Positions 11,719 to 58,300 of a stretch of DNA of 64,000 bases are shown one piece after another (position 1 is the stretch's first letter; the number at the start of each line of letters is the position of its first letter). Below the pieces are notes generated by a model. The model saw only the letters and a list, made by a program, of their open reading frames with translations, did not search any database and was not told the origin of the DNA. A program made the translations under genes and the position numbers. The DNA comes from Candidatus Curtissbacteria bacterium RIFCSPHIGHO2_12_FULL_41_17 (GTDB lineage: Bacteria > Patescibacteriota > Microgenomatia > Curtissbacterales > GWA2-41-24), in assembly GCA_001774945.1 (NCBI GenBank), contig MFBL01000043.1, forward strand, positions 2,782 to 66,781. The letters run 5' to 3'.

Positions 11719-13613
11719 TGAAATTAATCAGAGCCAATTTTCTCATTATTACCATCTTTTTCGGTGTATTAATTACTCTCAGTCTTCCGCATATATTCCG
11801 CTATCTTGCACTCGGTTCAAAATACACGACGCTCATCATAAGCGGGCCATCAGCAACTGCGACAAGCTGGGAAGAAACTTATACTTACGCAACGGAAGCA
11901 AACAGAATTAAAAACAACCAGCCAATCAATGACCCGTATATTTATGAATACAGAAACAAGCCTTCTCCATTAATCTCCGAATTAGTTCCGTCTGTTCTTT
12001 TGGGAGTACCCGCCAAAGTATTATCAACATCTTTAGTTTTTATACTGGCAAAAATCTTCGTTTTACCGCTTACAATTTTCGTATGGTACCTTATAGCCAG
12101 ACAACTTGGCTATTCAAAAAAAGCCAGTATTTGCGCAGCCCTAACAAGTTTTATCTTACAGAAGCTTTTTGTCTACATTCCATATTTTCCTAAAATATTC
12201 TCTTACGAATTTGATGGCTACCTTGAAGCCCAAAGAATTTATTTTCCCCTGATATCCTCGTTTATTACATCAATCACTATCTTATTTATTTTAAAAATTC
12301 TGGATAATAGATTCCCACGGCCTAAAGGCCGTGGTTCTCTAGTCTTCGCTCAAAATTCGCTTCATCTTCGGCAGATACAGTGCCATGCGGTCCTCGTCCT
12401 TCGGACTGCGGGCCTAAAATGCTGGAGTTTTTTCGCTCAGAATAAAAAAATGAAGTATGTACTATTAGCCGGAATATTACCGGGCTTACTTTTTTATACC
12501 TACTTTTTTGCATGGACCTTAATTTGGTCGTCACTAATATTATTTTTAATCAGTTTGAAAATATCCGGCTGGCACATCCAGGCAAAAAAATTACTTGCTG
12601 TTCTGGCAGTTGGATTATTAATCGGCCTTCCTTATTTTCTAAACTTACTGTTCTTTTATCAAAATCCATCGAGAAGCGATTTCATTTTAAGGACCATAAG
12701 TTTCCCAATAATTGATTGGAATATACCGATAATATTCAGGTTTTTGACATTTTTTTGTTTGATTACTTTTTTTGGTAAAAAATGGTTAAAAAGTCCCGAC
12801 AAAAGATTATTAATCTTAATCTACTTAACGGCGGCATTTTTGCCCTTAGTCTCAAAAATAATTTTTCAGGCGGATAACCAAACAGACCATTGGTACGAGC
12901 GTTTCTTATACCCATTATCAACCTTTTTACTTGTTCTTTTTGCGGCCGACATAAAACAACTAGGCCTCAAAATCAAAAATTTTATTTTTCTGGCATTTTT
13001 ACTTTTGGCAATTCTGAAGTTTGATATTAGTATTTACAACGAGATCAAAAGACCATCCGAATATTTCACAATTGGTCTACCCCGACTAGATCTTTATCAT
13101 TGGATGGCCAAAAATCTGCCAAAAAACAGCGTAGTTGGATCACTAAGTTTTAAGGAAGAAATCTATTTGACGGCATACACGCCTCTCTATGCTTATCTGC
13201 CTCAAGCATACAAAACAATAGCGCCGACAAAAGAAATTACGGATAGATATTTATTTCTGGCTCGCCAAATCGGTGTTGGTCCCGAATTTATAAAACAAGT
13301 CTTTATCATGCCCGACCAGTCTTACAGTAACCCTGATTCAATTCAGGCAAAGGACGGTAACGGCTTTATGGTTCTTCTCGGTATCGCCAACCATTTCGAC
13401 AAGTTTCCATACCCGTCTCACTACAAAATACAACAAGATTTAGTCCAGTCGCTCAACAAATCGATAAATCAAATCGGCCGTCTTGATTATTTATTGATAG
13501 GCCCATTAGAAAGAGAAGCATCTCCAGATTTTGCCAAAAACACCAAATGCCAGCTTATATTCCAAAATGTCACATACAAACTCTACCGCTTCCACAATTG
13601 TTCTGTCCGGTAA
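11718..13613 (+). CDS. Large polytopic membrane protein of unknown function. It contains an atypical GC-rich in-frame insert at ~12312-12433.
   Basis: A 631-aa ORF with many hydrophobic helices. The internal segment RFPRPKGRGSLVFAQNSLHLRQIQCHAVLVLRTAGLKCWSFFAQNKK is basic and non-hydrophobic, and its codons are GC-rich, unlike the flanks. Confidence 0.4.
   Translation: MKLIRANFLIITIFFGVLITLSLPHIFRYLALGSKYTTLIISGPSATATSWEETYTYATEANRIKNNQPINDPYIYEYRNKPSPLISELVPSVLLGVPAKVLSTSLVFILAKIFVLPLTIFVWYLIARQLGYSKKASICAALTSFILQKLFVYIPYFPKIFSYEFDGYLEAQRIYFPLISSFITSITILFILKILDNRFPRPKGRGSLVFAQNSLHLRQIQCHAVLVLRTAGLKCWSFFAQNKKMKYVLLAGILPGLLFYTYFFAWTLIWSSLILFLISLKISGWHIQAKKLLAVLAVGLLIGLPYFLNLLFFYQNPSRSDFILRTISFPIIDWNIPIIFRFLTFFCLITFFGKKWLKSPDKRLLILIYLTAAFLPLVSKIIFQADNQTDHWYERFLYPLSTFLLVLFAADIKQLGLKIKNFIFLAFLLLAILKFDISIYNEIKRPSEYFTIGLPRLDLYHWMAKNLPKNSVVGSLSFKEEIYLTAYTPLYAYLPQAYKTIAPTKEITDRYLFLARQIGVGPEFIKQVFIMPDQSYSNPDSIQAKDGNGFMVLLGIANHFDKFPYPSHYKIQQDLVQSLNKSINQIGRLDYLLIGPLEREASPDFAKNTKCQLIFQNVTYKLYRFHNCSVR
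12312..12433. other. GC-rich structured element (possible small RNA or miniature insertion) embedded in-frame in the ORF.
   Basis: The span is roughly 50-60% GC against a ~33% background. There is a perfect 8-bp hairpin ccacggcc-taaa-ggccgtgg (12315..12334). A second hairpin gtcc-ttc-ggac lies at 12396..12406. A T6 run follows at 12428..12433. Confidence 0.3.
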
Positions 13614-14784: not shown

Positions 14785-14831
14785 ATTCTCTGTGAATGAA
14801 GTATATTCTGTGCTAGAATTAGCTTCAACTC

Positions 14832-15809
14832 ATGCGTGTAAAACAAAAAATAATTGGAGTCACCGGTGCAGCCGGTTTCATTGGTAGTCATTTATGCGAG
14901 AAATTATTAAATAATGGTTACAAAGTAATAGCTGTCGACAATTTGTCAAAAGGCAGTAAAAATAACATACGAGATTCCCTGAAAAACAAGAGTTTTAATT
15001 TTTTTAAGGCTGACATAAGCAATCCAAAAACAGCAAGGAAGTCATTTGCCAACGTAGACGGTGTTGTCCATCTAGCTGCCTCTAAAATCCCAAGGTACGG
15101 AGGAAGGCTGGAAACTTTACTTGTAAACACCGAGGGAACAAAAAATATCTTAGAGGCGATAAAAAATAAGAAATCAAAGTTCATCTTTGCTTCGACGCCA
15201 GATGTCTACGGCAAAAACCCCAAAATACCATTTTCGGAAGACAGTGATCTTACTGTCGGTTCACCGGAGGTGGCAAGATGGGCCTATGCGGCTTCTAAAA
15301 TTTTTGACGAGCATCTTTGTTTTGGGTATTGGGAAGAATATAAAGTTCCTTTTGTCATTCTACGTCTATTTGGAGTTTATGGTCCGCGTCAGCACAGAAG
15401 CTGGTGGGGAGGGCCGCAAGCGCTTTTTATAGACAAGATCATAGCCGGAAAAGAAATTGAGATCCATGGTGATGGTCACCAGACAAGAACTTTTATTTAT
15501 ATCGATGATGTTGTTGAAGCACTCATTAAATCTATATCGTCCGAAAAAGCGAATAACCAAATAATTAACATCGGTACAACGCATGAAATTTCCATTATCG
15601 AACTTGGAAAATTAATTTCTAAACTTCTCCAAAAACCGCTCAAGATTAAAAAAGTACCGTATCGGTCTTTTACAGGCAAGAAATATGAAGATGTGAGAAG
15701 AAGGACTCCGACAATTAAAAAAGCTAAAGAGTTATTAAATTGGGAGCCAAAAGTCTCATTGGCTGAAGGACTTAAAGAAACAATAAGTTGGCACTTAAAA
15801 ACTAAATGA
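14832..15809 (+). CDS. UDP-glucuronate decarboxylase / UDP-xylose synthase-like SDR (ArnA C-domain-like).
   Basis: Carries GVTGAAGFIGSHL, YAASK and DGHQTRTFIYIDDVVEAL, which resembles the UXS signature G-x-Q-T-R-S-F-x-Y-V-x-D. Confidence 0.65.
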   Translation: MRVKQKIIGVTGAAGFIGSHLCEKLLNNGYKVIAVDNLSKGSKNNIRDSLKNKSFNFFKADISNPKTARKSFANVDGVVHLAASKIPRYGGRLETLLVNTEGTKNILEAIKNKKSKFIFASTPDVYGKNPKIPFSEDSDLTVGSPEVARWAYAASKIFDEHLCFGYWEEYKVPFVILRLFGVYGPRQHRSWWGGPQALFIDKIIAGKEIEIHGDGHQTRTFIYIDDVVEALIKSISSEKANNQIINIGTTHEISIIELGKLISKLLQKPLKIKKVPYRSFTGKKYEDVRRRTPTIKKAKELLNWEPKVSLAEGLKETISWHLKTK

Positions 15810-16537
15810 TTTACTTTCTAATTCCCTCTTTTAACGACTGTGAAAACTTTGCCGATTTGCTTAAAAATATTGCAAAGACCATAAAGCGCCAGAGATATAA
15901 AGTAACTATTGTCAACGACGGCTCTACAGATAAAACAAAGCAGGTTATAAAGGAGCTTTCAAAGAAATATCCGGTCACAATGATTGGCTATGATAAAAAC
16001 AGAGGACCGGGATACGCTTTTAAATTTGGTTTTAATTATTTAATCCCAAGACTCAAAGCCGATGATTTAGTAATAACTATGGAGGCGGACAACACTGCAG
16101 ATTATTTTATTCTTAAAAGAATGATTCAAGAATCCAATAACTTCGATGTGATACTAGCATCACCATATTCCGGGGCAGGGGCTTTTTTAGGCATAAATTT
16201 ACAAAGAAAAATTTTAGGACACGTTGCCAGTATTTTAGATCGCTTTATCTTTAGATTAAAAAACATTAAAACGTACTCGTCATTTTATAGAATTTACAGG
16301 GTAGCGATTCTTAAAAAGGCGAAAAAAGTATATGGTGATAAATTCATTACCGAAGATGGCTTTTCGTCTGTTATAGAGATTTTGATCAAGCTTGCAAAAG
16401 TTGACGCAAAATTTACCGAAGTTCCAGCAGTCGTTGACTGGAGGAGTCGGAAGGGTAAAAGCAAAATGAAAATTACAAAAACAATAACTCGCCATCTAAG
16501 ATTATACCAAGAATATCTTCAAGGAAAATATAACTAA
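15806..16537 (+). CDS. GT2 polyprenyl-phosphate sugar synthase (DPM1/ArnC-like, soluble form).
   Basis: Has the VTIVNDGSTDKT motif, and MEADNTADY provides the DxD-like region. Its start overlaps the upstream stop (ATGA). Confidence 0.6.
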   Translation: MIYFLIPSFNDCENFADLLKNIAKTIKRQRYKVTIVNDGSTDKTKQVIKELSKKYPVTMIGYDKNRGPGYAFKFGFNYLIPRLKADDLVITMEADNTADYFILKRMIQESNNFDVILASPYSGAGAFLGINLQRKILGHVASILDRFIFRLKNIKTYSSFYRIYRVAILKKAKKVYGDKFITEDGFSSVIEILIKLAKVDAKFTEVPAVVDWRSRKGKSKMKITKTITRHLRLYQEYLQGKYN

Positions 16538-17589
16538 TGAAAACGAAAATAGTTTCAATAGTTGGTGCGAGACCGAATCTTATTAAATTGGCAGCTTTAC
16601 ATCCTAGACTTCGCAAAGATTTCAACCATATCATAATCCATACAGGACAGCATTATGATTTAGAGCTTTCAAAACATTTTTTCGATGAGCTGGATATTCC
16701 AGAGCCCAACTATAATCTACATGTCGGCTCAGCGACTCATGGAATCCAAACAGCTAGAATCCTTTCTGGATGCGAAAGGATTCTACTGACTGAAAAGCCC
16801 TTTACTGTCTTGGTCTATGGGGATACAAATTCGACATTGGGAGGGGCTCTAGCTGCTGCAAAATTGCGTATCCCGACTGTGCACATTGAATCCGGGATGA
16901 GAAGTTACGATCGGTCAATGCCCGAAGAGATAAATAGAGTAATTACGGATCATATTTCATCATTATTATTGTGTCCTTCTGCTTCTGCTGCCAAATTTCT
17001 TAAAAAAGAAGGAATTACCAAAAACGTATTTTTTACTGGCGACGTTATGTACGATATTTTTTTAAAAATTAAGCCCAACCATCTGGTTTTGAAAAGATTT
17101 AATTTGAAGCCCAAAAGTTACTATTTTGCAACTGTCCATCGCCAAGAAAATACAGACAACCTTCAACGTCTTCGTCAAATATTTAATATTTTTGAAGCTT
17201 TAGATAGACCAGTTATTTTGCCAATCCATCCCAGAACTAGGAAAGCTCTTTCTCGAATTAAAATAAGTCTAAAAAATACTAAACTTGTAGAACCTGTCAA
17301 ATTTTCCGATAATATTGCCCTTGAACAGAATTCTTCGGTGATATTGACAGATTCTGGCGGCATTCAAAAAGAAGCCTATTGGTTAAGAATTCCCTGTCTG
17401 ACTCTACGAAATACTTCGGAATGGCTCGAAACAGTTAAAAGCGGGTGGAATCATATTACGGATTTAGATAGTGAACTTATCTTAAAATATACGACACAAA
17501 GGGTTAAACAATCTAAAACACACCCCCAATATTATGGAAAGGGCGATTCTGCTAAAAAGATAATCGATGTCATCAAGAAATGGCTATGA
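16537..17589 (+). CDS. UDP-N-acetylglucosamine 2-epimerase (WecB/WbpI family).
   Basis: Carries IVGARPNLIKLAAL, HTGQHYD and HIESGMRSYDRSMPEEINRVITDH, all family hallmarks. Confidence 0.8.
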   Translation: MKTKIVSIVGARPNLIKLAALHPRLRKDFNHIIIHTGQHYDLELSKHFFDELDIPEPNYNLHVGSATHGIQTARILSGCERILLTEKPFTVLVYGDTNSTLGGALAAAKLRIPTVHIESGMRSYDRSMPEEINRVITDHISSLLLCPSASAAKFLKKEGITKNVFFTGDVMYDIFLKIKPNHLVLKRFNLKPKSYYFATVHRQENTDNLQRLRQIFNIFEALDRPVILPIHPRTRKALSRIKISLKNTKLVEPVKFSDNIALEQNSSVILTDSGGIQKEAYWLRIPCLTLRNTSEWLETVKSGWNHITDLDSELILKYTTQRVKQSKTHPQYYGKGDSAKKIIDVIKKWL

Positions 17590-19403
17590 TAATTTGCGAT
17601 TTTGATGGTACAATTATTGACCCGTCGGAGAGACTTTACAAGGTTTATTCAAATTGCTGTTCTCTTCTTAAAATTAAACCATTATCTCAAAAAAGATTTA
17701 TAAATCTTAAAAGGTCAGGAAAGTCCGAAGTTGAGTTCATTAGTCCAGTAAAAGCTAGGGAAAAATACAGAAAAATTTTCAAGGAAAAAATAGAAGAAAA
17801 AAAATATTTAAGGTTGGACAGAATTTATCAATATGCAAAAGATTTCCTTGAGGATAATTATAAAAAAAATGAAATATTTTTAATGACTAATCGGCAAAAT
17901 AGAAAAAATCTGTTTTGGCAACTAGATTATTTGGAAATTAGAAAGTTCTTTCAAAAAATTATTCTTGCAAAAGAAGCAAACAAAAGTCTTCAATTTCTTA
18001 AATCACGGCATTTATACTTTATTGGTGACACAGAATTGGATATTAAGTTAGGGAGGAAATTATCTGCTTTCACAATTGCTGTAGACTATGGATTAAGAAC
18101 AAGGCGTTATTTGAAAAATTTTAAACCAGATAAAATTGTTTCCTTCCTCAAAGATATTAAATTTCCTACAGAAGACGTATTCATTCTTAAGACTTTGAAT
18201 AAAGGTCTTCAGCAGGTTAGAGATAGGACGGTTTTCATAGATTTGAGTAAAGAGCCTAGCCTATATGATTTGTTTAGAGTATTAAGAAAACAGCCTAAGA
18301 TGGTATTGATTAACGGGAAAGGATTTGTTGATCATTATGCCGTATTAGCGTCAGAGTTTGGGATTCCGCTAATTCCCGTACTTAAAAAAGATTCGCAAAG
18401 CGTCTTAAAGGTTTCCTCCCATACTATTCCAATTAAAAATAGTCATGTTATGGATCAAGACTCACAAGGCCAGCTTAAAACTGCTTCTAAATTAAAAATA
18501 AACCTTGGCAATAGCGAAATTCTTAAAAAATACCCTGAATTAGTTGAACTTAGCGACGGCATTGGTTTTTTGAGGACAGAATTTATACTTCTTTCTGTTC
18601 TAGAGGGTTTACATCCACAGTACTTTATCGATAAATTCGGGAAAAAGACATTGATAAAAAAATTCACAGTTGAAATGCTAAAGATAGTTTCAAAGTTCGA
18701 CAAAAAAAATAAACCGGTTTGGATACGTACGAATGATTTTTCAACAGATGAACTAAGACTGTTTAAATACGGAAATAGGTTCGAGAAAACGGAGCCTAAC
18801 CCCGCTCTTGGTTTCAGAGGAATAAGAAGAACTCTTGATGAGAAATTCTTATTAGAGGTAGAACTATCCGTATTCGATAATCTAATTAAAAATGGTATTA
18901 AAAATCTTGGCGTTTTTCCACCAATGGTTAGGTTCCCTGATGAATTCATTTCATTTGAAAAGATCATAAAAGAAAGATTTAAACATAAACTAAAGATAGG
19001 GTTGATGGTTGAAACGCCAGCTATTGCTCTGGCCTTTCACAACATAGTTAAAAAACTTGACTTTATGATATTTGGGTCCAATGATTTAACTCAATTCACT
19101 TTAGCTCTTGATAGGCAAAACCCGAATCTGGCGAAGTATTTCGATGGGAGAAATGAGTCGGTTATGTTCCTTTTCAATATCGTGATCGATTTGTGCAACA
19201 AGTTTAATGTCGAATCTTTCATTGGTGGTCAAGCTGCGAATGATTGGGAAACGGCCAAATTACTATTAAAACTTGGCATTTCCGGACTTTCTGTTTCACC
19301 TGACCCTTCTAGCTTTTCTAGAATGAGGGGCCTGATCTATAAATGGGAAAATAAACATAGTTTTTCTGTGAGTAAGCCAAGCTTTTCTGTGAATAAAAAA
19401 TGA
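17580..19403 (+). CDS. Fusion protein: N-terminal HAD-superfamily hydrolase domain plus a PEP-utilizing enzyme phospho-His swivel domain and a PEP/pyruvate-binding TIM barrel (Enzyme I / pyruvate phosphate dikinase (PPDK) / PEP synthase-like).
   Basis: HAD motifs are DFDGT (I), MTNR (II) and GDTELD (IV). The central VDHYAVLASEFGIPLIPV resembles GGRTSHAAIIARELGIPAV of Enzyme I (catalytic His). The C-terminal GIGFLRTEFILL and FGSNDLTQFTLALDR match PtsI GLFRTEFLYM and IGTNDLTQYTLAVDR. Confidence 0.65.
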   Translation: MAMIICDFDGTIIDPSERLYKVYSNCCSLLKIKPLSQKRFINLKRSGKSEVEFISPVKAREKYRKIFKEKIEEKKYLRLDRIYQYAKDFLEDNYKKNEIFLMTNRQNRKNLFWQLDYLEIRKFFQKIILAKEANKSLQFLKSRHLYFIGDTELDIKLGRKLSAFTIAVDYGLRTRRYLKNFKPDKIVSFLKDIKFPTEDVFILKTLNKGLQQVRDRTVFIDLSKEPSLYDLFRVLRKQPKMVLINGKGFVDHYAVLASEFGIPLIPVLKKDSQSVLKVSSHTIPIKNSHVMDQDSQGQLKTASKLKINLGNSEILKKYPELVELSDGIGFLRTEFILLSVLEGLHPQYFIDKFGKKTLIKKFTVEMLKIVSKFDKKNKPVWIRTNDFSTDELRLFKYGNRFEKTEPNPALGFRGIRRTLDEKFLLEVELSVFDNLIKNGIKNLGVFPPMVRFPDEFISFEKIIKERFKHKLKIGLMVETPAIALAFHNIVKKLDFMIFGSNDLTQFTLALDRQNPNLAKYFDGRNESVMFLFNIVIDLCNKFNVESFIGGQAANDWETAKLLLKLGISGLSVSPDPSSFSRMRGLIYKWENKHSFSVSKPSFSVNKK

Positions 19404-20476
19404 AAATGAAGATTTTAATAACAGGAGCAGGTGGTAGCGCCTCGATAGGACTTACACGTTGCCTAAAAAATTATTTTCCTAAGGCTAAAATTATCGGTGT
19501 AGAGTCAGATTTATTCAATTCAGCATTATCAGAAACAAATAGTACGTATCTTATCCCGCGGGCCAGTGACAAGGATTATATTAAGGTGCTCAACCATATA
19601 ATTCTAAAGGAGAAAATAGATTTTTTATATCCTCAAACCGATTCTGAAATTTCAGCTATAGCAAAGAATATTAGAAAAATTCAGTGTAAGACACTAATCC
19701 CTTCCTTTAAAATCATTTCAACTTGTCAAAACAAATATAAACTCAATAAACACCTATTTGCAAAAGGAATTCCTGTTCCCAAGACCATTCTTATAAAAAC
19801 ATCCAGTGACCTAAAAAATGCCACCAAGTATAAACTTTTTTGGCTAAGAAATGTTACAGGTGCCGGTGCAAAGGGCGCGTTTTTGGCGGAAAATTTTGAA
19901 CAAGCAATCTGGTGGATAAATTTTCAAAATGGTTGGGGCCACTTTACCGCATCAGAATACATGCCTGAGGATAACTATGGATGCGATTTACTTTTTGCTG
20001 GGGGGAAGCTCGTCTTCTCTCAAATCAAAAGGAGACTTGAGTATGTACTCTCAAAAGCAAACATCGTAGGAATAACTGGAACCACGGGCATTCTCGAGAC
20101 TGTCTCAACAAAATTCGACCTCAATGATATTTCTGAAAGAGCAGTGACTCTACTTGATAACAATATTTCAGGCGCTTTCTCAGTTGATATAAAGTGTGAC
20201 TCACTTTCAAAACCATATGTGACAGAGATAAATCCAGGAAGATTTCTATCATCCTCGATGCATTTATTCGCAGAAACTAAATTTCCTGCTCCCGCATTAG
20301 TAATTCTTGTTGCAAACGACCAAAAATTACCCTCTTTTCCCAAAAGAAATCCAATAAAAGGTGGTACCATCCTGATAAGACAACTAGATCGTAAGCCAGC
20401 GACAGTAAATCTGAAAAATCACAACAGATTAAGAAAAAAGTTTGAAAGAAAACATTATGTCAAATTAGAAACATGA
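19400..20476 (+). CDS. ATP-grasp domain protein (carbamoyl-phosphate-synthase-like ligase/kinase fold).
   Basis: Has an N-terminal Rossmann-like ILITGAGGSASIGL pre-ATP-grasp region. The central block KHLFAKGIPVPKT...GAGAKGAFLAENFEQA is ATP-grasp-like. It overlaps the upstream gene by 4 bp. Confidence 0.5.
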   Translation: MKMKILITGAGGSASIGLTRCLKNYFPKAKIIGVESDLFNSALSETNSTYLIPRASDKDYIKVLNHIILKEKIDFLYPQTDSEISAIAKNIRKIQCKTLIPSFKIISTCQNKYKLNKHLFAKGIPVPKTILIKTSSDLKNATKYKLFWLRNVTGAGAKGAFLAENFEQAIWWINFQNGWGHFTASEYMPEDNYGCDLLFAGGKLVFSQIKRRLEYVLSKANIVGITGTTGILETVSTKFDLNDISERAVTLLDNNISGAFSVDIKCDSLSKPYVTEINPGRFLSSSMHLFAETKFPAPALVILVANDQKLPSFPKRNPIKGGTILIRQLDRKPATVNLKNHNRLRKKFERKHYVKLET

Positions 20477-21459
20477 TCAAGATTGCAGTTATCGGCCTAG
20501 GGTATATGGGGCAGGGGCACGTCCGAGTGCTTTCTTCACTATCAGAAGTTGATATAGTTGCAGTCTGCGATAAGGATTTTCAAAAAACAGAAAAAATATC
20601 AAAACAGTATAGAGTGAAACCGTACCGAAACTTTAAAAAACTTTTAAAAGAGGAAGAACTAGATGCTATCTCAATTTGTCTCCCCACATCGCTTCATTTC
20701 ATAGTTGCATCAAATGCAGCCAAAAAAGGAATTGCACTTTTTATCGAAAAACCAATATGTTCTAATTCCAAAGAAGCTAAGAAACTAATTGAGCTCGCTA
20801 GGTTTAAAAAAACTCCAATAATGGTGGGCCACATCGAAAGATTTAATCCAGTAGTCAACGAAATTAAACAGAGGATTAAATTAGGAGAGCTAGGGAGAAT
20901 CTTGCAAATTCATACCCAGAGATTTTCTCCCCCACCCGCAAGGGCATTCGACGTTTCTGCGGTTGTGGATTTAGCAACCCATGACATCGACATCATTCAA
21001 TATCTTCTTGACCAAAAACCCGTCAGAATTTACGCAGAGACTGACAACAAAGCTCACAGAAAAGAGGATTTAATGGCAGCGATTTTGAGGTTTAAAAATG
21101 GTGTAATCGGACTCGTTGAAGTGAGTTGGCTACATCCGACAAAAATTAGAAGGTTAACAGTTTTAGGTGAGAATGGAATGTATGTAGCAGATTATATTAC
21201 TCAAGAACTATTTTTTTACAGACAAAACGAGAATCTATTCAGAAAAAATAATATTTCTCCGACTACTCCTATTACACAAGCAGATATTGTCAAAATAGCC
21301 TTTCAAGCAAAAGAACCTCTTGAAATAGAACTCGAATCTTTTATTCAGGAACTTCTATCCGGGGCAAAGATGTCTGTCACAGCTGAAGATGGCTTAGTTG
21401 CTCTAACCTTGGCGGAGAAAATGATTAATTCTGGAACTTTCCATAAAGTTTTAAAATGA
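20473..21459 (+). CDS. Gfo/Idh/MocA-family NAD(P)-dependent oxidoreductase (WbpB-like sugar 3-dehydrogenase candidate).
   Basis: Carries IKIAVIGLGYMGQGH at the N-terminus and EKPICSNSKEAKKLIELA, the EKP motif of the family. Confidence 0.7.
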   Translation: MIKIAVIGLGYMGQGHVRVLSSLSEVDIVAVCDKDFQKTEKISKQYRVKPYRNFKKLLKEEELDAISICLPTSLHFIVASNAAKKGIALFIEKPICSNSKEAKKLIELARFKKTPIMVGHIERFNPVVNEIKQRIKLGELGRILQIHTQRFSPPPARAFDVSAVVDLATHDIDIIQYLLDQKPVRIYAETDNKAHRKEDLMAAILRFKNGVIGLVEVSWLHPTKIRRLTVLGENGMYVADYITQELFFYRQNENLFRKNNISPTTPITQADIVKIAFQAKEPLEIELESFIQELLSGAKMSVTAEDGLVALTLAEKMINSGTFHKVLK

Positions 21460-22733
21460 ATGCTGCGGTAATCGGATTAGGTTATGTAGGGCTACCACTT
21501 TCTATCAGGCTTGCTCAAACCGGTTTTGGAGTACTTGGTATTGATAAAGATCAAAAGAAGATTGAACTTTTAGGAAAAAATTTACTTCCTTTCGGTCTGA
21601 GAGAACCAAATTTGTTGAGTTTTTTTAAGCAAGCTCAAGTGAGTAAAAATTTAAAATTCACATCAACTTATGAAGAGATAAAAGATGTTGATATCATTTT
21701 CATCAGTGTTGATACACCAGTTGAAAAAAGACAACCAGATATCGCTTCTTTATTAGCGGCCACTAAGAGCATTGCAAAACATTTAAAAAAAAATCAGATA
21801 ATTGTCATTGAATCTACAGTTGCACCCAAAACAACTCAAGATTTAATTATTCCCCTACTTGAGAAGCTATCAAAGTTGAAGTTAAATCGAGACTTTTTCG
21901 TTGCGGTTGTTCCAGAAAGAATCCGTCCTAATTATATTTTTAAACAACTGACAACCTTGCCTAGAGTGATTGGAGTATCTGATCTTAGAATTAAGAAAGA
22001 ACTAAGAATAATTTATTCAAAAATAACTACTGGGAAGCTAAATTTTACAGACTTGGCTACCGCCGAAGTTGTCAAAACAGTAGAAAATGCCTATCGGGAT
22101 GTTAATATCGCCTTTGCCAATGAGATAGCACTTGCTTGCGAAGATCTAGGGGTAGACGTATGGAAAATCAGAGAACTTGTCAATAAGTCACCATGGCGAG
22201 ATATGCATAAACCAGGATCAGGGGTTGGCGGGCACTGCATTCCAAAAGATCCATGGCTTTTAGCGTCTTCTGTCAAAAAACACCAAATGAGGTTAATTGA
22301 AACAGCCAGAAGCATAAATGATAATATGCCTGCGCACATTTTTGCATTAGCGGAAGAAGCGCTCAAAGAAAAGAAAATCAAAATTGCCAGTGCAAATCTT
22401 GCCATACTCGGTTATGCATATGTTGGCAATTCAGACGACACCAGAAATTCTCCAACTGAATCGTTAATACAAATCCTAAAGAACAAAAAAGTTAAATATA
22501 AGGTTCATGACCCATACGTCAAAGATTTTTCAAATCACTCTGTAGAGATGACAGCAAAAGGGGCAGACGTTTTAATTATCATGGTAAACCATGACGTATA
22601 TAAAAAAATCAATTATAAAAAAGTTGCGAAAGTAATAAAAACGAAAATTATCATTGATGGCCGGAACTTGGTGCCGGCCGAACTTGTCAGAAAGTTGGGT
22701 TTTGTCTATAAGGGTGTTGGAAACACCAGTTAA
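21456..22733 (+). CDS. Nucleotide-sugar 6-dehydrogenase (UDP-glucose/GDP-mannose dehydrogenase family; WecC/WbpA-like).
   Basis: Carries MNAAVIGLGYVGLPLSIRLAQ, GVGGHCIPKDP with the catalytic Cys, and a C-terminal UDP-binding domain. Confidence 0.8.
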   Translation: MNAAVIGLGYVGLPLSIRLAQTGFGVLGIDKDQKKIELLGKNLLPFGLREPNLLSFFKQAQVSKNLKFTSTYEEIKDVDIIFISVDTPVEKRQPDIASLLAATKSIAKHLKKNQIIVIESTVAPKTTQDLIIPLLEKLSKLKLNRDFFVAVVPERIRPNYIFKQLTTLPRVIGVSDLRIKKELRIIYSKITTGKLNFTDLATAEVVKTVENAYRDVNIAFANEIALACEDLGVDVWKIRELVNKSPWRDMHKPGSGVGGHCIPKDPWLLASSVKKHQMRLIETARSINDNMPAHIFALAEEALKEKKIKIASANLAILGYAYVGNSDDTRNSPTESLIQILKNKKVKYKVHDPYVKDFSNHSVEMTAKGADVLIIMVNHDVYKKINYKKVAKVIKTKIIIDGRNLVPAELVRKLGFVYKGVGNTS

Positions 22734-23872
22734 TGAAAAAATATTTTCTATTAGGACTGCTTATAAAATTCCTCTTTGTAGTCTTTACTTTTCACTTGGA
22801 CACCTTATTTATTTGGGAAAGACCGGCACATTTTATTCAAAATTTACATACAATCAGTTCCTATTACGGGCCGTTAACATACATTACCTTCGGTATGCTT
22901 TCACCGATTTATTTCCTAAGCCAGAACATCGGGTATTGGATATTAAAAATCCCTTACTTGTTTGTGGACATTTATATACTTTATTTATTGTTGAAAATGT
23001 CACCTAAAGCTATTCATAAAAAGGTCCTTGTCTTTTGGTGGCTGAACCCCATTGTCATATTCTCGACGTATGCGATGGGGCAATTAGACATAATTTTATC
23101 TTTGTGCGTGGTGCTTTCCGTGTATGTTGCCAAGAGACACCATGTCTTTTCAATCTTATCTCTTGGAGCAGGTGTGGCATATAAAACAATGACCCTGCCG
23201 CTTCTTATTTCCTCATCACTAATTCTAGAAAAAAATTTAGTTAAAAGGATTGAAATGATAGCAATCGGGATATCTGTGCCACTGTTACTTGGGATACTAT
23301 TCTGGTTACCCTCGCACCAAAATATTTCAAATACCTATTTTCCAACAGGCATTATTTTCTATCCCAAATTGTCAATGACCCCGGACGCCATTTGGGAATA
23401 TTCGAGTTTATTTATAGGAATAATCGGCTTTTTTGCAGTCCAATACCTGCTGATTAAAAAGAAAATAGACATTTCTAATTTTGCGCACGTATTATTCGTC
23501 TCGCTTGCGTTCGTTATAATTGCCCTACCCATCTACTCGGTTTTTAGATATACGATATTAATGCCATTACTGGTACTCGTTTCATTAAAAGTGAAAAAAG
23601 CCTTAGTGCTAGCACTTATTCTAATTTTGCTGCCGCTTGGTTATCTATACATTTGGCCTCTCGAGTGGGGCTTAATCGCCCATATTTACCCTCAGGCTAA
23701 AAATTTACCGGCACTGCGCGAATGGGTTTCCCTAGTGGTAAATTACGAAAATGCAGCATTTTTATTCAGAGTTATTGCTGATAGCCTGATTTTCTATTTG
23801 GCAATCATATCACTTAAAAAAACGTTCCATCATAAAACTTTATCCAATCAAATAAGTGGCAACCATATTTAA
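22733..23872 (+). CDS. Polytopic membrane protein, possible GT-C/DUF2029-like glycosyltransferase or polymerase.
   Basis: Has about ten hydrophobic helices and no soluble domain. The family assignment is uncertain. Confidence 0.3.
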   Translation: MKKYFLLGLLIKFLFVVFTFHLDTLFIWERPAHFIQNLHTISSYYGPLTYITFGMLSPIYFLSQNIGYWILKIPYLFVDIYILYLLLKMSPKAIHKKVLVFWWLNPIVIFSTYAMGQLDIILSLCVVLSVYVAKRHHVFSILSLGAGVAYKTMTLPLLISSSLILEKNLVKRIEMIAIGISVPLLLGILFWLPSHQNISNTYFPTGIIFYPKLSMTPDAIWEYSSLFIGIIGFFAVQYLLIKKKIDISNFAHVLFVSLAFVIIALPIYSVFRYTILMPLLVLVSLKVKKALVLALILILLPLGYLYIWPLEWGLIAHIYPQAKNLPALREWVSLVVNYENAAFLFRVIADSLIFYLAIISLKKTFHHKTLSNQISGNHI

Positions 23873-25373
23873 ATACCAACTAACACTTTTAATTTTTCTC
23901 CTACTGCTGTGGAACATCTTCATGCCGATTTTTGAAGGTGCTGATGAAGAAGGCCATTTTTGTTCAGCCGACTACATTGCTCATAAAAATAAGTTACCAA
24001 ACTTGCTGATAAATGACGGTTGCTTTATATGGCATCCTCCCTTGTACTATCTTTATCTTTCTCCATTCATTAGATTATTTCACACGCCACAGCATACACC
24101 TTTTGATGTCAAAGAAAACCCCAAAGCATTCTTATTAAGAAAGGGGCAGTACGCCCAGTACGTTCATACGAAAAAAGAGATGACATTCAGATGGAATACT
24201 CTTCAGCTTATGGTACATGTGCTTCGCTTATTGACCTCATTTTTTGCCGTTTTAATATTTATCATTACCTGGAAAGCTGCCAGAAATATCTTTTCCGAAA
24301 AGTTAGCCCGGAATTTGTCTTTGCTTCTATTCTTTAACCCAATGTTTATTCATATATTCACGACATTAACAAACGTGACACTAGTAAGTTTAATCGCAAC
24401 AGTGGTGATCTTGATAGATCTTGCGCATGCAAAAGAGTCTAAAAGCCTAAAAGTCGTATTTATCCAAGGCCTGTTAATAGGTTTTGGTTACATTACAAAG
24501 ATTACTATTTTGTCTTTAATTCCCGTCTGGCTTATTTTAATGATTGTTGAACAGCATAAGTTTAAATACTCGTTAAGGTTACTTATCGGCAAAGTTTCCA
24601 TTTTTACAATTGGGTTTGCTTTAAGTGCCGGTTGGTATCTTGCCAGGAATTTAATGCTTTACGGCAATATTCTGGAAGTAAATGCACTGGCAAAAACATA
24701 TGGGGCAAGTGCCCACGATTTACTGCTGGAGCGTGTCGGCCTTTTAAATTATTTAAACAGCATTGCACTGACACTATTTAAAACCTTTTGGTCCGGCTAT
24801 GGATATTTAACAATAAGATTTCCCGAATTTGTGAACCTACCTTTGCTCATAGTTTTGTTATTAATAATTTATACAATCTATGTGAATTACAAAAAACTGA
24901 ACCGGGAATTAACAATTGCCCTTATTTACGCAGTCGGTGTGATTGGGGGTCTGGTCATTATGAACTTTAGGCTTTCCGCAATGCACGCAAAGGACCTTTT
25001 CCCTGCTTATATGCCTCTTGCGCTATTGTTTGGATACGGCTTGTTTCATGCTAAAGACACCATCAAGAAAGGCCGTTTACGATTTTTTACAATTGTAAGT
25101 TTAATTCTCGGTTCCTATCTTTTTGCGCAAGTGGAAATTGTAAAATTATTAAAGGCATTGTTTCAATTTCAGTGGGCTCCGGTAGTACCTCTTCTTTTGG
25201 CAATAGCTATAAAAACCGTTCTTGTTTTCGCGCTTGTTAAAATTGTTGTGAGCTTCATAGGTAAGGCGAAATTTGACCCAAAAAGCGTTGTTGTTCTTAC
25301 ATACCTCATTGCAATATTTGACATTTTCATCCTATTTTCAAGCGTTTATCTGTTATACAAAAGCTTCATTTAA
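23856..25373 (+). CDS. GT39-like (protein O-mannosyltransferase/ArnT-like) GT-C glycosyltransferase.
   Basis: The first loop, FEGADEEGHFCSADYIAHKNKLPNL...WHPPLYYL, resembles the PMT DE(x)HF...HPPL motif. The rest is polytopic. Confidence 0.55.
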   Translation: MATIFKYQLTLLIFLLLLWNIFMPIFEGADEEGHFCSADYIAHKNKLPNLLINDGCFIWHPPLYYLYLSPFIRLFHTPQHTPFDVKENPKAFLLRKGQYAQYVHTKKEMTFRWNTLQLMVHVLRLLTSFFAVLIFIITWKAARNIFSEKLARNLSLLLFFNPMFIHIFTTLTNVTLVSLIATVVILIDLAHAKESKSLKVVFIQGLLIGFGYITKITILSLIPVWLILMIVEQHKFKYSLRLLIGKVSIFTIGFALSAGWYLARNLMLYGNILEVNALAKTYGASAHDLLLERVGLLNYLNSIALTLFKTFWSGYGYLTIRFPEFVNLPLLIVLLLIIYTIYVNYKKLNRELTIALIYAVGVIGGLVIMNFRLSAMHAKDLFPAYMPLALLFGYGLFHAKDTIKKGRLRFFTIVSLILGSYLFAQVEIVKLLKALFQFQWAPVVPLLLAIAIKTVLVFALVKIVVSFIGKAKFDPKSVVVLTYLIAIFDIFILFSSVYLLYKSFI

Positions 25374-25374
25374 T

Positions 25375-26505
25375 CTAAAAAAGATTATTGTACCTTTCTA
25401 TAAGAATTGGGTTAACGCTATTTAAATCGAAGTTGTGAATTCTGGTCAATGACGGGACAATTAAAGCAAAAGTTAGAAGAAGAAGAATCGATAACACAAA
25501 AAACTTTCTTAAAGTCTCATTTTTCAAATCTATGGATTTGAAAACCGCAGACATACCCGCACCCGTAAAAGTTGCCAGTGGAGGCATTAAGGGCAAACTG
25601 TAATACTCGTGTGTGGAGACATGTCTGTTGAAAAACGCCGCGTATAAAATCGAAGCAAATAACCACGTTTTCCATAAAGCCATAGACTTTTCCCTCCAGC
25701 TGTAGAAAAGTCCTATTATAAAAAATAAAAGCCCGATTGTTGTAAGGGCGTTGATATGTAATATGTTAAATACAGATGTATAAAAACGGTAATCCAGAAA
25801 AAACAAAGGGTCAAACCAATTTAGTATGGCATAGGCCCCGCTATAACCTTCACCTTTCATTATCATTGATGCACGGATAGACCAGACGATAATTGGCATG
25901 AAAAAAATTAGATATTTTAAAATTCCCAATCGTATCTTTGTATGTTTCTTTAAGGTAAAGATAAGCCCAAATAGATAAAATGGCAGCTTGATAAACCCTG
26001 ATATCATCAAAAAGAAATAAGAAGAATAATAAATGGAAATAAGTAGAAACATAAGTGCAAGCTCATCCGGCTGATATGATCTGCTTACAAGTACATGTAG
26101 AGGAGAAAATACAAAAACAAGAAGAGCCGGGAAAAGTAACTTTTTGTCTGAATGTTTTAAAATTATGAGCGCGAAAAATATCGAACTTATCAAATAAGCA
26201 AATATAGAAACCAATCTGCCTAAAATAAGATTTTGCCCAAATGACGAATATAATCCTGCTGTAATTAGGTTATAAATAGGTAATTCCAGAACAAGCGGGG
26301 TAGGGTAGCCCTTTTCGTATCTTATTTTGGGAATCCAAAAGTCGTTCCAACCATTAGCATAAATATTTCTGGTTATTTCTGCCGTTTGCGTTTGCCTTTC
26401 CGGGAAATATTCCAAAATAGGTTGATTTATCCTATAGAACCTTAATGCTAATCCCGACAGAATAATTATAGTTACTAAAATGTTTCTTTCTAAGGTGGTC
26501 ATCAA
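25375..26505 (-). CDS. ArnT-like (GT83/GT39) membrane glycosyltransferase, short form.
   Basis: Carries YFPERQTQTAEITRNIYANGW, comparable to ArnT DETRYAEISREMLASGDW. The rest is polytopic. It converges on the upstream plus-strand gene, with the two stop codons 1 nt apart. Confidence 0.45.
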   Translation of the reverse strand: MMTTLERNILVTIIILSGLALRFYRINQPILEYFPERQTQTAEITRNIYANGWNDFWIPKIRYEKGYPTPLVLELPIYNLITAGLYSSFGQNLILGRLVSIFAYLISSIFFALIILKHSDKKLLFPALLVFVFSPLHVLVSRSYQPDELALMFLLISIYYSSYFFLMISGFIKLPFYLFGLIFTLKKHTKIRLGILKYLIFFMPIIVWSIRASMIMKGEGYSGAYAILNWFDPLFFLDYRFYTSVFNILHINALTTIGLLFFIIGLFYSWREKSMALWKTWLFASILYAAFFNRHVSTHEYYSLPLMPPLATFTGAGMSAVFKSIDLKNETLRKFFVLSILLLLTFALIVPSLTRIHNFDLNSVNPILIERYNNLF

Positions 26506-28025
26506 GAGTGAATTACATGTTCAATAAAATCAAAAATTTTTTGATATGAATCTTTACCAAACGCGTCACAGCAATTTTTAACGACCTTATCCTGAATTGA
26601 TCTTTGTTTGGCCAAAGCACGGGGATTGCCGATAAACTTAAGAATTACCCTGTCTATTTTGGGCAAAGATTTAATCGGCACATTCACCGCGGCACCGCTT
26701 TTCGTCATAAAATTACCATCAACCTCTTGGAGCCACGAGTTGTGAAAGAAAAAAAGAGGCTTTTTGTAAAGCATCGCCTGGAAACCTGCTGTGGTGGCCC
26801 CAGTAAGGACTATGTCGTTATTTTTAATATCATCAGCAAGGGGGTGTGTACTGAACCCGAAATTTGAAGGAAGATCAATTGCTTTAAAATCACCCCCCTT
26901 ATTATAAGATGGATGCGCCCTTACCGTTATTAGAAATCTATTTGGCAGTTTTGATAAACCATTAATCAAGTCTCTTGTCACTGTACCATTCTCTATAGAA
27001 CGAAAAATTGCTTCCGTTCCAAACGGCGGCGCCAAAAGAACTAGAATGCCTATTGTTTTCTTTTTCTGAATGGCAAAATCATTCTTACCCACAGCATATT
27101 TTTTTAGAAAAGGAGACCCTACTTCAATTTTAACTTGGCGCATATTCTTGACTATTTCTGCCTGCTGTTTGGACCACATAAGTTCATAATCGCTTCGGTA
27201 AAACTGGGCATCAGTTTCCCACAACCAAATACCATGTTGGATTTCGGCAGAAGGAATACCTAATTTGTGAGCCATCAAACAAAAAGCCGATCCCGTTAAG
27301 TCATTGCTTGTAGTAGTCAACAGTAAGCGTGCCGAACTTAAAGAAAGCAATTTATTTGCTAACGATAATAGGCTTACTATTTCCGGAAACTGCACCAGTC
27401 GCAAGAACCATAGTCGTTTTTTCCAGTAATGACTACCGAATGGATAAACACGTGGTGTACTGCGTTGCCCTCTAGAGACAAAATAAGCTAGATATTTAAG
27501 CCTGCTAAATCTGTCCAAAAAAGATAATCCGCTTTGGAAATCAAAATAATCAATGGACGATTTGGACAATTGCTTTTTAAAGTGTTCGTTAAGTTTACCA
27601 ACGACCAGAATATCATATTTCCTGTGCAAAAAAGTTATTAGACCAAAAAGCTCTTCAATATGTCTTCCGCTTCCCAAGATAATGAGAGGAAAAATTTTAG
27701 AAACTTGAACTTGCTTACGAGCGTGCATGGTATCTTTAACTAAATCATAAGTCCTAAATAATATTTCCAGTATTTTTTTAAATCTATTTGTGCCGCGATT
27801 AACAATTAGCGGATAATTTGCCCAGACATCCATTACTAACCCTGACTGATTTTCCAAATCAAACAGACAGGAGAGAAAGTAATGCTGAGAAAAAGCTTGC
27901 ACAGTCTCAATTGCCACGCCTTTAAACTTAAAGTTGAGTTTTGGGTAATATCTTGAAATCCAGGAGTTAGAAAGATTAGCAGAGAGACTGTAATTTTTCT
28001 TTGTCTCCTGATAAGACTTAGGCAT
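26502..28025 (-). CDS. Putative polysaccharide-biosynthesis transferase (TagF/KpsS Capsule_synth-like).
   Basis: The C-terminal half (ITVRAHPSYNKGG...IVLTGATTAGFQAMLYKKPLFFF) resembles CDP-glycerol glycerophosphotransferase / capsule synthesis proteins. The call is weak. Confidence 0.3.
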   Translation of the reverse strand: MPKSYQETKKNYSLSANLSNSWISRYYPKLNFKFKGVAIETVQAFSQHYFLSCLFDLENQSGLVMDVWANYPLIVNRGTNRFKKILEILFRTYDLVKDTMHARKQVQVSKIFPLIILGSGRHIEELFGLITFLHRKYDILVVGKLNEHFKKQLSKSSIDYFDFQSGLSFLDRFSRLKYLAYFVSRGQRSTPRVYPFGSHYWKKRLWFLRLVQFPEIVSLLSLANKLLSLSSARLLLTTTSNDLTGSAFCLMAHKLGIPSAEIQHGIWLWETDAQFYRSDYELMWSKQQAEIVKNMRQVKIEVGSPFLKKYAVGKNDFAIQKKKTIGILVLLAPPFGTEAIFRSIENGTVTRDLINGLSKLPNRFLITVRAHPSYNKGGDFKAIDLPSNFGFSTHPLADDIKNNDIVLTGATTAGFQAMLYKKPLFFFHNSWLQEVDGNFMTKSGAAVNVPIKSLPKIDRVILKFIGNPRALAKQRSIQDKVVKNCCDAFGKDSYQKIFDFIEHVIHS

Positions 28026-28566
28026 GGCGGTGAATTTTAGCGAGAGTAGCGTTTACTACCTCTATATAAAGAGGGTATAAATCATTGTAGACATCCGCCT
28101 CGACTTTATTTTTGATACTATCTATTCTTATAAATTTTTCAACAATTACTTTTCCGCCGTCAACTTTTTCGGTCATCCAATGAGATGCCACTGAAGCCTT
28201 GTTAACTCCGTCATTTATTAGTCTTAAAATGGGTTTTGCACCTTTGTATTTATATAAGCATGGATGGATGTTAATGCAGGGTATGGATTTTACCAAATGA
28301 GGACTAAAGATCTTCTTACCATGACAGCACAGTAGTAAATCAATCTGCTTTGCTAACTTTTCAATTAATTCTTGATCATCCAATTTATGTTTGGGGAAAA
28401 TTTGCAGGTTGAATTCTTCGGCTATTTTTTCGATTTTTTCGTCTTCGCAAAAAACAGCTCTTATATTGTGTCCTTTGGCAATCAAGTTCAGTAGAACTAT
28501 CATACCTGTACTTTGACCACCATAAAAAGCAATTTTCATCTTTAATTTGTTTTGACCATTTTCCAA
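28018..28566 (-). CDS. Formyltransferase-domain protein (Fmt/ArnA-N-like sugar N-formyltransferase).
   Basis: KIAFYGGQSTG and IHPCLYKYKGAKP compare with the formyl_transf motif HPSLLPKYRG. Confidence 0.55.
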   Translation of the reverse strand: MENGQNKLKMKIAFYGGQSTGMIVLLNLIAKGHNIRAVFCEDEKIEKIAEEFNLQIFPKHKLDDQELIEKLAKQIDLLLCCHGKKIFSPHLVKSIPCINIHPCLYKYKGAKPILRLINDGVNKASVASHWMTEKVDGGKVIVEKFIRIDSIKNKVEADVYNDLYPLYIEVVNATLAKIHRHA

Positions 28567-30354: not shown

Positions 30355-30357
30355 TTA

Positions 30358-31602: not shown

Positions 31603-31603
31603 A

Positions 31604-34769: not shown

Positions 34770-34777
34770 AAGCTTTA

Positions 34778-39824: not shown

Positions 39825-39826
39825 AA

Positions 39827-42115: not shown

Positions 42116-42118
42116 TAG

Positions 42119-43102: not shown

Positions 43103-43162
43103 TTATAAAAAAACATTTGAATAAACTGGTAATTTTTCACCATTTGTAATATTCTAGCCGAT
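43103..43162. promoter_or_regulatory. Divergent intergenic promoter region.
   Basis: A 60-bp AT-rich spacer lies between head-to-head genes 42119..43102(-) and 43163..44089(+). It contains TAATAT/TATAAA-like boxes. Confidence 0.35.
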
Positions 43163-58274: not shown

Positions 58275-58300
58275 TTATTCGAAAAGTAAATTTTTCTTTT

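Follow-up and report, generated by a model that had tools for sequence, protein, structure and literature searches.

A divergent GT-C glycosyltransferase with an acidic first-loop motif, encoded in a predicted diamino-uronic acid operon of a Candidatus Curtissbacteria surface-glycan locus

The open reading frame (ORF) 23856..25373 (+ strand) lies in a 64,000-nt window from an uncultured groundwater organism, Candidatus Curtissbacteria bacterium RIFCSPHIGHO2_12_FULL_41_17 (GCA_001774945.1, contig MFBL01000043.1 positions 2,782-66,781, forward strand; the window is the whole stretch of DNA that was analysed, and all coordinates refer to it). It encodes a 505-aa membrane protein, referred to here as the focal protein, which by its predicted structure belongs to the GT-C glycosyltransferases and carries a conserved acidic motif in its first extracytoplasmic loop. 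The gene is the last of an operon whose other products form a sugar-nucleotide pathway. We consider it somewhat probable that the focal enzyme transfers the diamino-uronic acid sugar of this operon from a lipid carrier to a surface acceptor, in the manner of ArnC/ArnT.

The focal protein has about 13 predicted transmembrane (TM) segments, and the candidate catalytic residues D30 and E31 lie directly after the first of them (TM1, helix 2-22). The ORF reads ...MPIFEGADEEGHFCSADYIAHKNKLPNLLINDGCFIWHPPLYYL..., with FEGADEEGHF at residues 25-34 and WHPPLYYL at residues 60-67. This is the loop sequence quoted in a first-pass annotation of the same DNA, whose ORF coordinates were all reproduced. Immediately behind TM1 the pattern P-x2-E-G-x-D-E-x2-H ... 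(H)PPLYY is found. The close family comprises about 34 members, and 31 full-length orthologs (42-63% identity) were aligned. P24, E27, G28, D30, E31, H34, C36, P48, C56, P62 and Y65 are invariant across the alignment, as are R124, K215 and R264. An exhaustive profile search with the family returned 4,744 cluster representatives at E<=1e-3 and only 49 at E<=1e-30. In a set of 70 remote relatives, which share about 20-36% identity with the focal protein, P24, E31, R124 and K215 are again invariant, and E27, D30, P62, Y64, Y65 and R264 are conserved in at least 90%. Position 61 varies more: its His gives way to Tyr or Gln in part of the orthologs, and Gln is the substitute in the wider family. 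Since it is conserved in orthologs and remote relatives alike, the acidic motif pointed out by the annotation is real and under selection.

A chance string was rejected as an explanation of the motif, the N-terminal TM helix and the motif being kept in full-length homologs. A wrongly placed ORF start was likewise rejected: the GTG start codon, which gives a 17-nt overlap with the upstream gene, directly follows an in-frame TAA, and the N-terminal helix is conserved in full-length homologs. The public gene calls of several family members (P0001, P0010, P0013 and P0015) begin at the internal Met23, yielding proteins of 481-483 aa that lose the first TM helix (window 23856-23924). The longer form of 503-505 aa is correct, because the N-terminus is conserved and a stop codon stands directly upstream. 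A scan of GTDB representative genomes found no relatives of the focal family, and a metagenome scan found seven loci with such relatives; the named members that were found come from bacteria of the candidate phyla radiation (CPR), namely Candidatus Curtissbacteria.

The AlphaFold2 model of the focal protein (predicted local distance difference test score, pLDDT, 86; predicted template modelling score, pTM, 0.89) is nearly all helical, with a first loop spanning residues 23-114 and no extramembrane beta domain. When this model was compared with the PDB using Foldseek, the top 28 matches were all GT-C enzymes. ArnT was the best match (E 1.5e-5, TM-score 0.52), followed by ALG9, Pmt4, STT3, AglB, Pmt1/2, AftB and Emb. 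As modelled, the protein is a GT-C glycosyltransferase of the structural class of ArnT, the protein O-mannosyltransferases (PMTs) and STT3, and it is no closer to the PMTs than to ArnT, ALG9 or STT3.

At the level of sequence, the sole Pfam match of the focal protein is to PMT_2 (PF13231). It is marginal (29.1 bits against a gathering cutoff of 26.1, residues 123-247), and PMT_2 is matched by 22 of the 31 orthologs. Among the remote relatives, 58 of 70 match PMT_2, 31 match DUF2142 and 30 match PMT (PF02366). PF02366, PMT_4TMC (PF16192) and MIR were found in none of the 31 family members in Pfam searches, even at E<=1, and PMT_4TMC is also absent from the Pfam results for the 70 remote relatives. 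Bacterial-type Pmts are not known to carry MIR, and the absence of MIR alone would then not exclude such an enzyme. DUF2142 (PF09913) is matched by a single member of the 31 (E 0.16) and not by the focal protein itself, so that judging by sequence its relation to DUF2142 is at the superfamily level only. The first-pass annotation had called the protein PMT-like (GT39). Its assignment to the GT-C glycosyltransferases with a loop-1 motif held up, whereas the GT39 part did not, PF02366 and PMT_4TMC being missing and ArnT being the best structural neighbour. Given the marginal PMT_2 match, the lack of PMT, PMT_4TMC and MIR, and a fold no closer to the PMTs, we describe the protein as a divergent PMT_2/DUF2142-type GT-C and not a demonstrable GT39 enzyme. 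By sequence, its subfamily is uncharacterised and sits at the junction of Pfam PMT_2, DUF2142 and PMT.

Described as a hallmark of GT-C enzymes, the DE motif has its ArnT counterpart in D55, and loop 1 of Streptomyces Pmt presents D113/E114 followed by H159/P161, with R182 as a further residue (PMC8698208). The focal protein shows the corresponding features, D30-E31, H61-P62 and, before TM2, R124, which are also common to ArnT and not specific to GT39. By analogy, these residues may be the equivalents of Pmt D113/E114/H159/R182. An active GT-C is expected to have certain acidic, basic and histidine residues; that these are invariant or conserved argues for catalysis having been retained in the family.

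The operon consists of 10-11 genes on the + strand, from 13690 or 14832 to 25373, and from 14832 onwards each gene overlaps the next by 1-17 nt. Pfam and NCBIfam searches identified a DegT-family aminotransferase (13690-14784), with which the sugar-nucleotide genes start, an epimerase/dehydratase of the short-chain dehydrogenase/reductase (SDR) family (14832-15809), and a soluble GT2 enzyme resembling dolichyl-phosphate mannose (Dol-P-Man) synthase (DPMS; 15806..16537, PF00535, no TM segment). These are followed by a non-hydrolysing, WecB/WbpI-like UDP-GlcNAc 2-epimerase (16537..17589; PF02350 1.2e-95; TIGR00236 277 bits, above its cutoff), a HAD phosphatase fused to a C-terminal domain that uses phosphoenolpyruvate (PEP) (17580-19403), a PylC-like ATP-grasp ligase (19400-20476), a GFO oxidoreductase resembling UDP-GlcNAc 3-dehydrogenase (20473-21459; NF040723 292.9 bits, below the 450-bit cutoff) and a UDP-ManNAc/GlcNAc 6-dehydrogenase (21456-22733; TIGR03026 384.9 bits, above its cutoff). 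A 379-aa polytopic membrane protein with about 9 TM segments, designated mem379 (22733..23872), directly precedes the focal gene. This set of enzymes is that of the WbpA/B/E/I-type route to 2,3-diamino-2,3-dideoxy-uronic acids. The best solved match of the GT2 enzyme is Pyrococcus furiosus Dol-P-Man synthase (5mlz, 1.8e-16), aligned over residues 4-233 and hence over the whole catalytic domain.

The synteny comparison covered 12 related loci (designated by L numbers). In L002, L007 and L008 the order of the operon, including the GT2 gene, mem379 and the focal gene, is kept at 40-82% identity, and so is the order of the DegT and SDR genes. A mem379 homolog adjoins the focal gene in L002, L006, L007, L008 and L012. 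The layout, in which sugar tailoring genes stand together with a lipid-phosphate GT2 and a GT-C, appears by analogy to mirror the arn operon and multi-component transmembrane glycosylation systems (PMC8035078, PMC11127046).

In L002 (6001-6570), L007 and L008, a WbpD-like hexapeptide acetyltransferase occupies the slot that in the window holds the HAD-PEP fusion and the ATP-grasp ligase (17580-20476). The presence of the latter pair in the acetyltransferase slot hints that the uronic acid sugar is modified in an unusual way, with a group other than acetyl, on its 3-amino group or its carboxylate. The HAD fusion carries the C-terminal PEP-binding half of a PEP synthase-like enzyme and, together with the ATP-grasp protein, resembles a split PEP-synthase architecture.

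From the fold, the motif and the gene linkage, all of which are results of the analysis, we infer the chemistry of the focal enzyme as follows. Judging from its gene content, the operon would turn UDP-GlcNAc into UDP-2-acetamido-3-(acyl)amino-2,3-dideoxy-hexuronic acid by WbpA/B/E/I-like steps. The GT2 enzyme 15806-16537 would, by virtue of its similarity to Dol-P-Man synthase, load this sugar on polyprenyl phosphate at the cytoplasmic face, and the lipid-linked sugar would then be flipped either by a GtrA-family protein (55360), the only one in the window, or by another protein. In the focal protein, D30/E31, located where the first extracytoplasmic loop begins, may act as catalytic base or ligand and R124, K215 and R264 may hold the donor phosphate, while the sugar is passed to an acceptor on the outer face. 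The use of a polyprenyl-linked donor is suggested by the GT-C fold taken together with the DPMS-like GT2 in the same operon. Most likely, the acceptor would be a surface glycopolymer built by the many GT4 and GT2 enzymes of the locus and exported by a Wzm/Wzt-like ABC-2 type transporter pair (57492..59083, - strand; PF00005 and PF01061), a candidate exporter of the lipid-linked backbone glycan.

This arrangement resembles the aminoarabinose relay ArnC/ArnT (GT83) of Gram-negative bacteria, where sugar-nucleotide tailoring enzymes (aminotransferase, dehydrogenase) are likewise combined with a GT2 that loads polyprenyl phosphate and with a GT-C. Among solved structures the focal protein is best matched by ArnT, which shares with it the acidic residue at the start of loop 1 and basic residues for the donor phosphate. 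However, no sequence similarity to ArnT is detectable, the TM-score is only about 0.5, and the focal protein lacks a C-terminal periplasmic domain. The sugar would be a diamino-uronic acid and not L-Ara4N, and the flippase would be of the GtrA type or another kind and not ArnE/F. Lipid A is not expected in a cell of Candidatus Curtissbacteria. The RgtA/B/C/D galacturonosyltransferases of Rhizobium are PMT_2-type GT-Cs that transfer a uronic acid from a polyprenyl-phosphate donor, with the lipopolysaccharide core or lipid A as acceptor. They share the PMT_2 type with GT-Cs of the window, and the UniRef cluster of the short GT-C 25375-26505 bears the name 'RgtA/B/C/D-like'.

A further parallel is provided by multi-component systems of Gram-positive bacteria (CsbB/GtcA/YfhO, GtlA/GtlB, CsdAB and GacI/J/K/L), which join a GT-A polyprenyl-phosphate synthase, a GtrA-type flippase and a GT-C of the PMT_2 or another type, and which decorate teichoic acids or wall polysaccharides outside the membrane. 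In these systems one flippase can serve several GT-A/GT-C pairs (PMC8035078), which fits the single GtrA protein of the window. They differ in that two of the three GT2 enzymes found here are soluble and DPMS-like instead of membrane-anchored as in the GtrB/CsbB types, and in the highly modified donor sugars, the seven or eight GT-Cs of a single locus and the CPR host of the present case.

Several findings weigh against ArnC/ArnT-like transfer of the operon's sugar. PDB sequence searches with the focal protein, with the ortholog profile and with a profile including the remote relatives returned no relevant match, and at the sequence level the focal protein matched no solved or characterised enzyme. 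The GtrA gene lies 30 kb from the focal gene. While GT-A and GT-C genes share an overlapping operon in the window, L002, L007 and L008, this linkage is absent at the focal homologs of L003, L005, L009 and L010. In L003/L004/L010, L005 and L009 the focal homolog occurs without the uronic-acid operon and its GT2, directly after a homolog of the 631-aa GT-C described below, and coupling to the GT2 gene 15806 is therefore not universal. Relative to L009, the stretch 13690-23872 of the window resembles an inserted block. The only partner present in every locus with enough flanking sequence is a GT-B-fold protein encoded at 26502..28025 (- strand), beside the genes for pseudaminic acid (Pse).

This soluble 507-aa protein, which represents a new sequence family, is encoded convergently with the focal gene, and its gene abuts the pseudaminic acid genes. 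It has no Pfam, NCBIfam or PDB sequence match. With an AlphaFold2 model (pLDDT 79, one good model of five), Foldseek retrieved GT-B glycosyltransferases and MurG at 1e-12 to 1e-10, and the modelled fold is similar to those of GT1 enzymes and MurG; its conserved motifs are R-x-H-P-S-Y and T-T-A-G. It is a candidate for a new family of pseudaminyltransferases or PseG-like enzymes.

As the GT-B protein is the most constant neighbour of the focal gene, the focal GT-C may alternatively be a ligase or polymerase. In such a role it would act on a polyprenyl-diphosphate-linked oligosaccharide, like the DUF2142-type proteins WpsI/WpsJ of Lactococcus: a repeat unit containing pseudaminic acid, finished in the cytoplasm where the GT-B protein would assist, would then be joined to another glycan or to an anchor. 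We regard this as rather unlikely, though worth keeping in view. The sequence of focal gene, 26502-type GT-B gene and Pse genes is constant in L001-L005, L007-L010 and L012, irrespective of the proximity of a DPMS-like GT2, and this constancy, together with the DUF2142 affinity of the remote relatives, keeps the ligase or polymerase reading alive. In the synthesis of lactococcal wall polysaccharide, DUF2142 proteins have been given the part of polymerases or transferases (PMC12599335, PMC9746298), and near-identical contigs place a Wzx-type flippase just past the end of the window. The DUF2142 GT-Cs (WpsI/WpsJ, and streptococcal proteins of the rgp locus) have a P-D-E-x2-H-type loop-1 motif in common with the focal superfamily, and their genes lie in wall-polysaccharide loci. 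However, the focal family falls below the DUF2142 thresholds and the focal protein itself is unmatched, and the roles of WpsI/WpsJ, including the handling of diphosphate-linked oligosaccharides, are themselves predictions. Furthermore, translational coupling here ties the focal gene to a monosaccharide pathway that includes a DPMS-like GT2, whereas the GT-B gene is convergently transcribed and not part of the operon.

Protein O-glycosylation, in which the focal GT-C would act in a PMT-like manner and attach a lipid-linked sugar to Ser/Thr of secreted or surface proteins (surface (S-) layer, pili, adhesins), appears unlikely. It was suggested by the loop-1 DE followed by H-P-P, which resembles the PMTs and compares with D113/E114 and H159/P161 of Streptomyces Pmt (PMC8698208). 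In addition, Pmt4 and Pmt1/2 are among the Foldseek matches and PF02366 is matched by 30 of the 70 remote relatives. With the GT39 PMTs (yeast Pmt1/2/4, actinobacterial Pmt) the focal protein thus has in common the GT-C fold, the loop-1 DE and H-P, and a predicted polyprenyl-phosphate-linked donor. Against this stand the absence of PF02366, PMT_4TMC and MIR from 31 of 31 family members and the better structural match of ArnT than of any PMT. GT-Cs whose acceptors are lipids or glycans have the DE motif as well, and for most of the characterised PMT_2 and DUF2142 GT-Cs of Gram-positive bacteria the acceptors are teichoic acids and wall polysaccharides (PMC8035078, PMC12599335). Streptococci do possess protein O-glycosylation by GtrB and a GT-C (PMC12041528), but their protein-modifying GT-Cs are of the YfhO type, another family. 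Neither in the window nor in the 12 related loci is a gene for an acceptor protein linked to the focal gene, and the linked pathway would make a 2,3-diamino-uronic acid, a context that argues against mannose. It is very improbable that the focal protein merely keeps a GT-C-like fold and serves as a transporter, flippase or inactive scaffold. It is indeed nearly all membrane and has no large extracytoplasmic domain, but the acidic, basic and histidine residues expected of a transferase are invariant in 31 orthologs and conserved in the remote relatives. ArnC/ArnT-like transfer of the diamino-uronic acid is the reading that we prefer.

The focal gene is one of several GT-C genes in the window. 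Up to eight GT-Cs had been proposed by the first-pass annotation, and eight polytopic membrane proteins were assessed. Pfam, fold and hhalign results support seven of them, five firmly and two probably; mem379 could not be classified. The firm five are the focal protein (by its fold), the proteins 5769, 8349 and 10057 (PMT_2 above cutoff) and 25375 (by its homologs and hhalign). The three paralogs 5769-7457, 8349-10073 and 10057-11718 (+ strand) share 33-42% identity and score 30.7-32.8 bits with PF13231 (cutoff 26.1); a methyltransferase gene (7521-8255, - strand) lies among them. The gene for the short PMT_2/ArnT-like GT-C of 376 aa (25375..26505, - strand) is convergent with the focal gene. 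Its homologs carry PF13231/PF02366 and are named ArnT-like or RgtA/B/C/D-like, and it was linked to the focal superfamily by hhalign (98.4%, E 5e-15). The probable GT-Cs are the polytopic 631-aa protein (11718..13613, + strand), with an hhalign match to the focal superfamily of 92.9% (E 3.6e-7), and the PMT_2-like 569-aa protein (44805-46514, - strand), which was aligned from TM1 with the profile of the 25375 family (95.8%, E 7e-9) and has NDEAIY...YGPL in its N-terminal loop 1. In Pfam searches at E<=10, the proteins 11718, 22733, 25375, 44805 and 26502 all stayed unclassified, and local hhalign among the membrane proteins with shallow, locus-derived alignments gave no signal. Deeper alignments linked 25375, 11718 and 44805 to the focal superfamily, but not 22733. 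For mem379 (22733-23872) there is no Pfam, NCBIfam or PDB match and hhalign to PMT_2-type families was insignificant; it is a candidate GT-C or an accessory, flippase-like partner.

The annotation had also drawn a picture of several lipid-linked relays, and its parts were recovered. The soluble GT2 enzyme 44069..44794 (- strand), like 15806..16537, has 5mlz as its best solved match (1.5e-25), and both can be regarded as DPMS-like. The third GT2 (47766..48740, - strand) is of the membrane-anchored GtrB type (undecaprenyl-phosphate hexose synthase type), with two C-terminal TM segments and matches to GtrB (5ekp, 3.5e-68) and ArnC (1e-29); the PgfS model scored 235.6 bits, below its 500-bit cutoff. 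The small GtrA-family membrane protein (55360..55770, + strand; PF04138 5.9e-25), a candidate flippase for lipid-linked sugars, and the further GT-Cs 25375..26505 (firm) and 44805..46514 (probable) were recovered as well. GT2 44069-44794 and GT-C 44805-46514 form a second relay pair, and GtrB 47766 could supply another with one or more of the other GT-Cs, which would bring the window to at least two relays beside that of the focal gene. With three GT2s of the polyprenyl-phosphate glycosyltransferase type, GtrA and many GT-Cs present, several lipid-linked extracytoplasmic glycosylation relays are a reasonable reading.

The Pse genes occupy 28018..40801 (- strand). PseB (442 bits), PseC (478 bits) and PseI (390 bits) scored above their NCBIfam cutoffs, and PseF-like and PseH-like proteins below theirs. 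The pathway further includes two WbuX amidotransferases, HisH/HisF-like partners, a formyltransferase and a GT2. The two WbuX proteins with their HisH/HisF-like subunits and the formyltransferase suggest, by sequence similarity, an acetamidino or formylated derivative of pseudaminic acid. No recognisable PseG was found in the pathway with Pfam or NCBIfam. Besides the GT-B protein, another candidate for the missing PseG nucleotidase is the 337-aa protein 35466-36479, which shows faint similarity only, to a model of the Tannerella BFO_1060-type glycosyltransferase.

Two further sets of sugar genes were observed. The conserved block 40853-44794 (in L002, 12691-16615) encodes an NDP-hexose C-methyltransferase, an SDR epimerase/dehydratase, an RmlD-like reductase and the second DPMS-like GT2, which suggests a branched-chain (C-methylated) deoxysugar handled via a lipid-phosphate carrier. 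In L002, L007 and L008 a block of this type adjoins a 25375-type GT-C and not a 44805-type one. Between nucleotidyltransferases and the GtrB operon, the region 50334-54507 encodes a thiamine pyrophosphate-dependent, acetolactate synthase-like enzyme, an Ldh_2 dehydrogenase, a DJ-1/PfpI protein and a 261-aa protein left unassigned by Pfam; this set may serve to make a substituent of an unusual acyl or branched kind.

The gene for the 631-aa GT-C (11718-13613), whose homolog is the direct upstream neighbour of the focal gene in several relatives, contains an in-frame insertion of about 130 nt (window 12311-12443, residues ~205-250). The insertion is GC-richer, and none of the six homologs in related loci has it. 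Its folding is strong (-48.9 kcal/mol, z -4.15) and yields two hairpins: a perfect one of 8 bp, CCACGGCC-TAAA-GGCCGTGG, and a long one which, like a terminator, finishes in a T run. Shorter copies of about 95 nt with 92-93% identity are found between genes in another Curtissbacteria genome and in a Saccharimonadales metagenome-assembled genome (L029 6013-6112, - strand; L081 4737-4797). No Rfam match was obtained for the insertion. It may be a small mobile element, similar to a miniature inverted-repeat transposable element, or a small-RNA or terminator element that landed in frame in a loop of the membrane protein.

According to the Pfam maps, the entire 64-kb window is a single surface-glycan locus, with a GC content of about 36%. 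Between 67 and 25373 the genes are on the + strand, and between 25375 and 63963 most are on the - strand. Proteins identical or nearly identical to those of the window are encoded in genomes of groundwater Candidatus Curtissbacteria (Microgenomates, CPR; OGD87317, OGD91378 and GCA_001776535.1). Near-identical contigs (L135 1-9338; L132 1-9939) reveal that the locus runs past both ends of the window. The upstream extension of about 9 kb encodes four GT4s together with a GT2, an epimerase and a methyltransferase. The downstream extension, of 10 kb or more, encodes a GT2, two unknown proteins, a further PMT_2 GT-C (396 aa), a hexapeptide transferase, a methyltransferase, a 537-aa unknown protein and the Wzx-type flippase; unknown membrane proteins are among these products. 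Altogether the locus exceeds 80 kb by a wide margin, and it combines export by an ABC transporter with Wzx-type export. The density of GT-Cs is unusual, with seven or eight in 64 kb and at least one more just outside.

CPR genomes are small, at roughly 1 Mb. For such a genome seven or eight GT-Cs, three lipid-phosphate sugar synthases, and pseudaminic acid and several rare-sugar pathways are a very large investment. The cell surfaces of CPR bacteria are essentially uncharacterised. A search of a literature collection returned no paper linking CPR or Patescibacteria with pseudaminic or nonulosonic acids, none tying CPR to GT-C enzymes and none connecting Microgenomates with glycosylation and S-layers. 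It is conceivable, though quite improbable, that the focal GT-C, the GT-B protein 26502 and an acetamidino-pseudaminic acid pathway form a CPR-specific machine, with the GT-C as a PMT_2/DUF2142-type O-oligosaccharyltransferase that puts Pse-capped glycans on S-layer or pilus proteins. If true, PglB, PglL/PilO, PMT and YfhO would be joined by a new, distinct class of bacterial enzymes for protein glycosylation, which could help to explain how reduced-genome, possibly host-dependent bacteria build their contact surfaces. The mechanism that we expect of the focal enzyme is conventional and of a known kind. Neither its family nor that of the 26502 protein has a characterised member. Defining the donor and acceptor of both families would add a new branch to the GT-C map, and would give handles, such as lectins, antibodies and metabolic labels, with which CPR cells could be studied or enriched.

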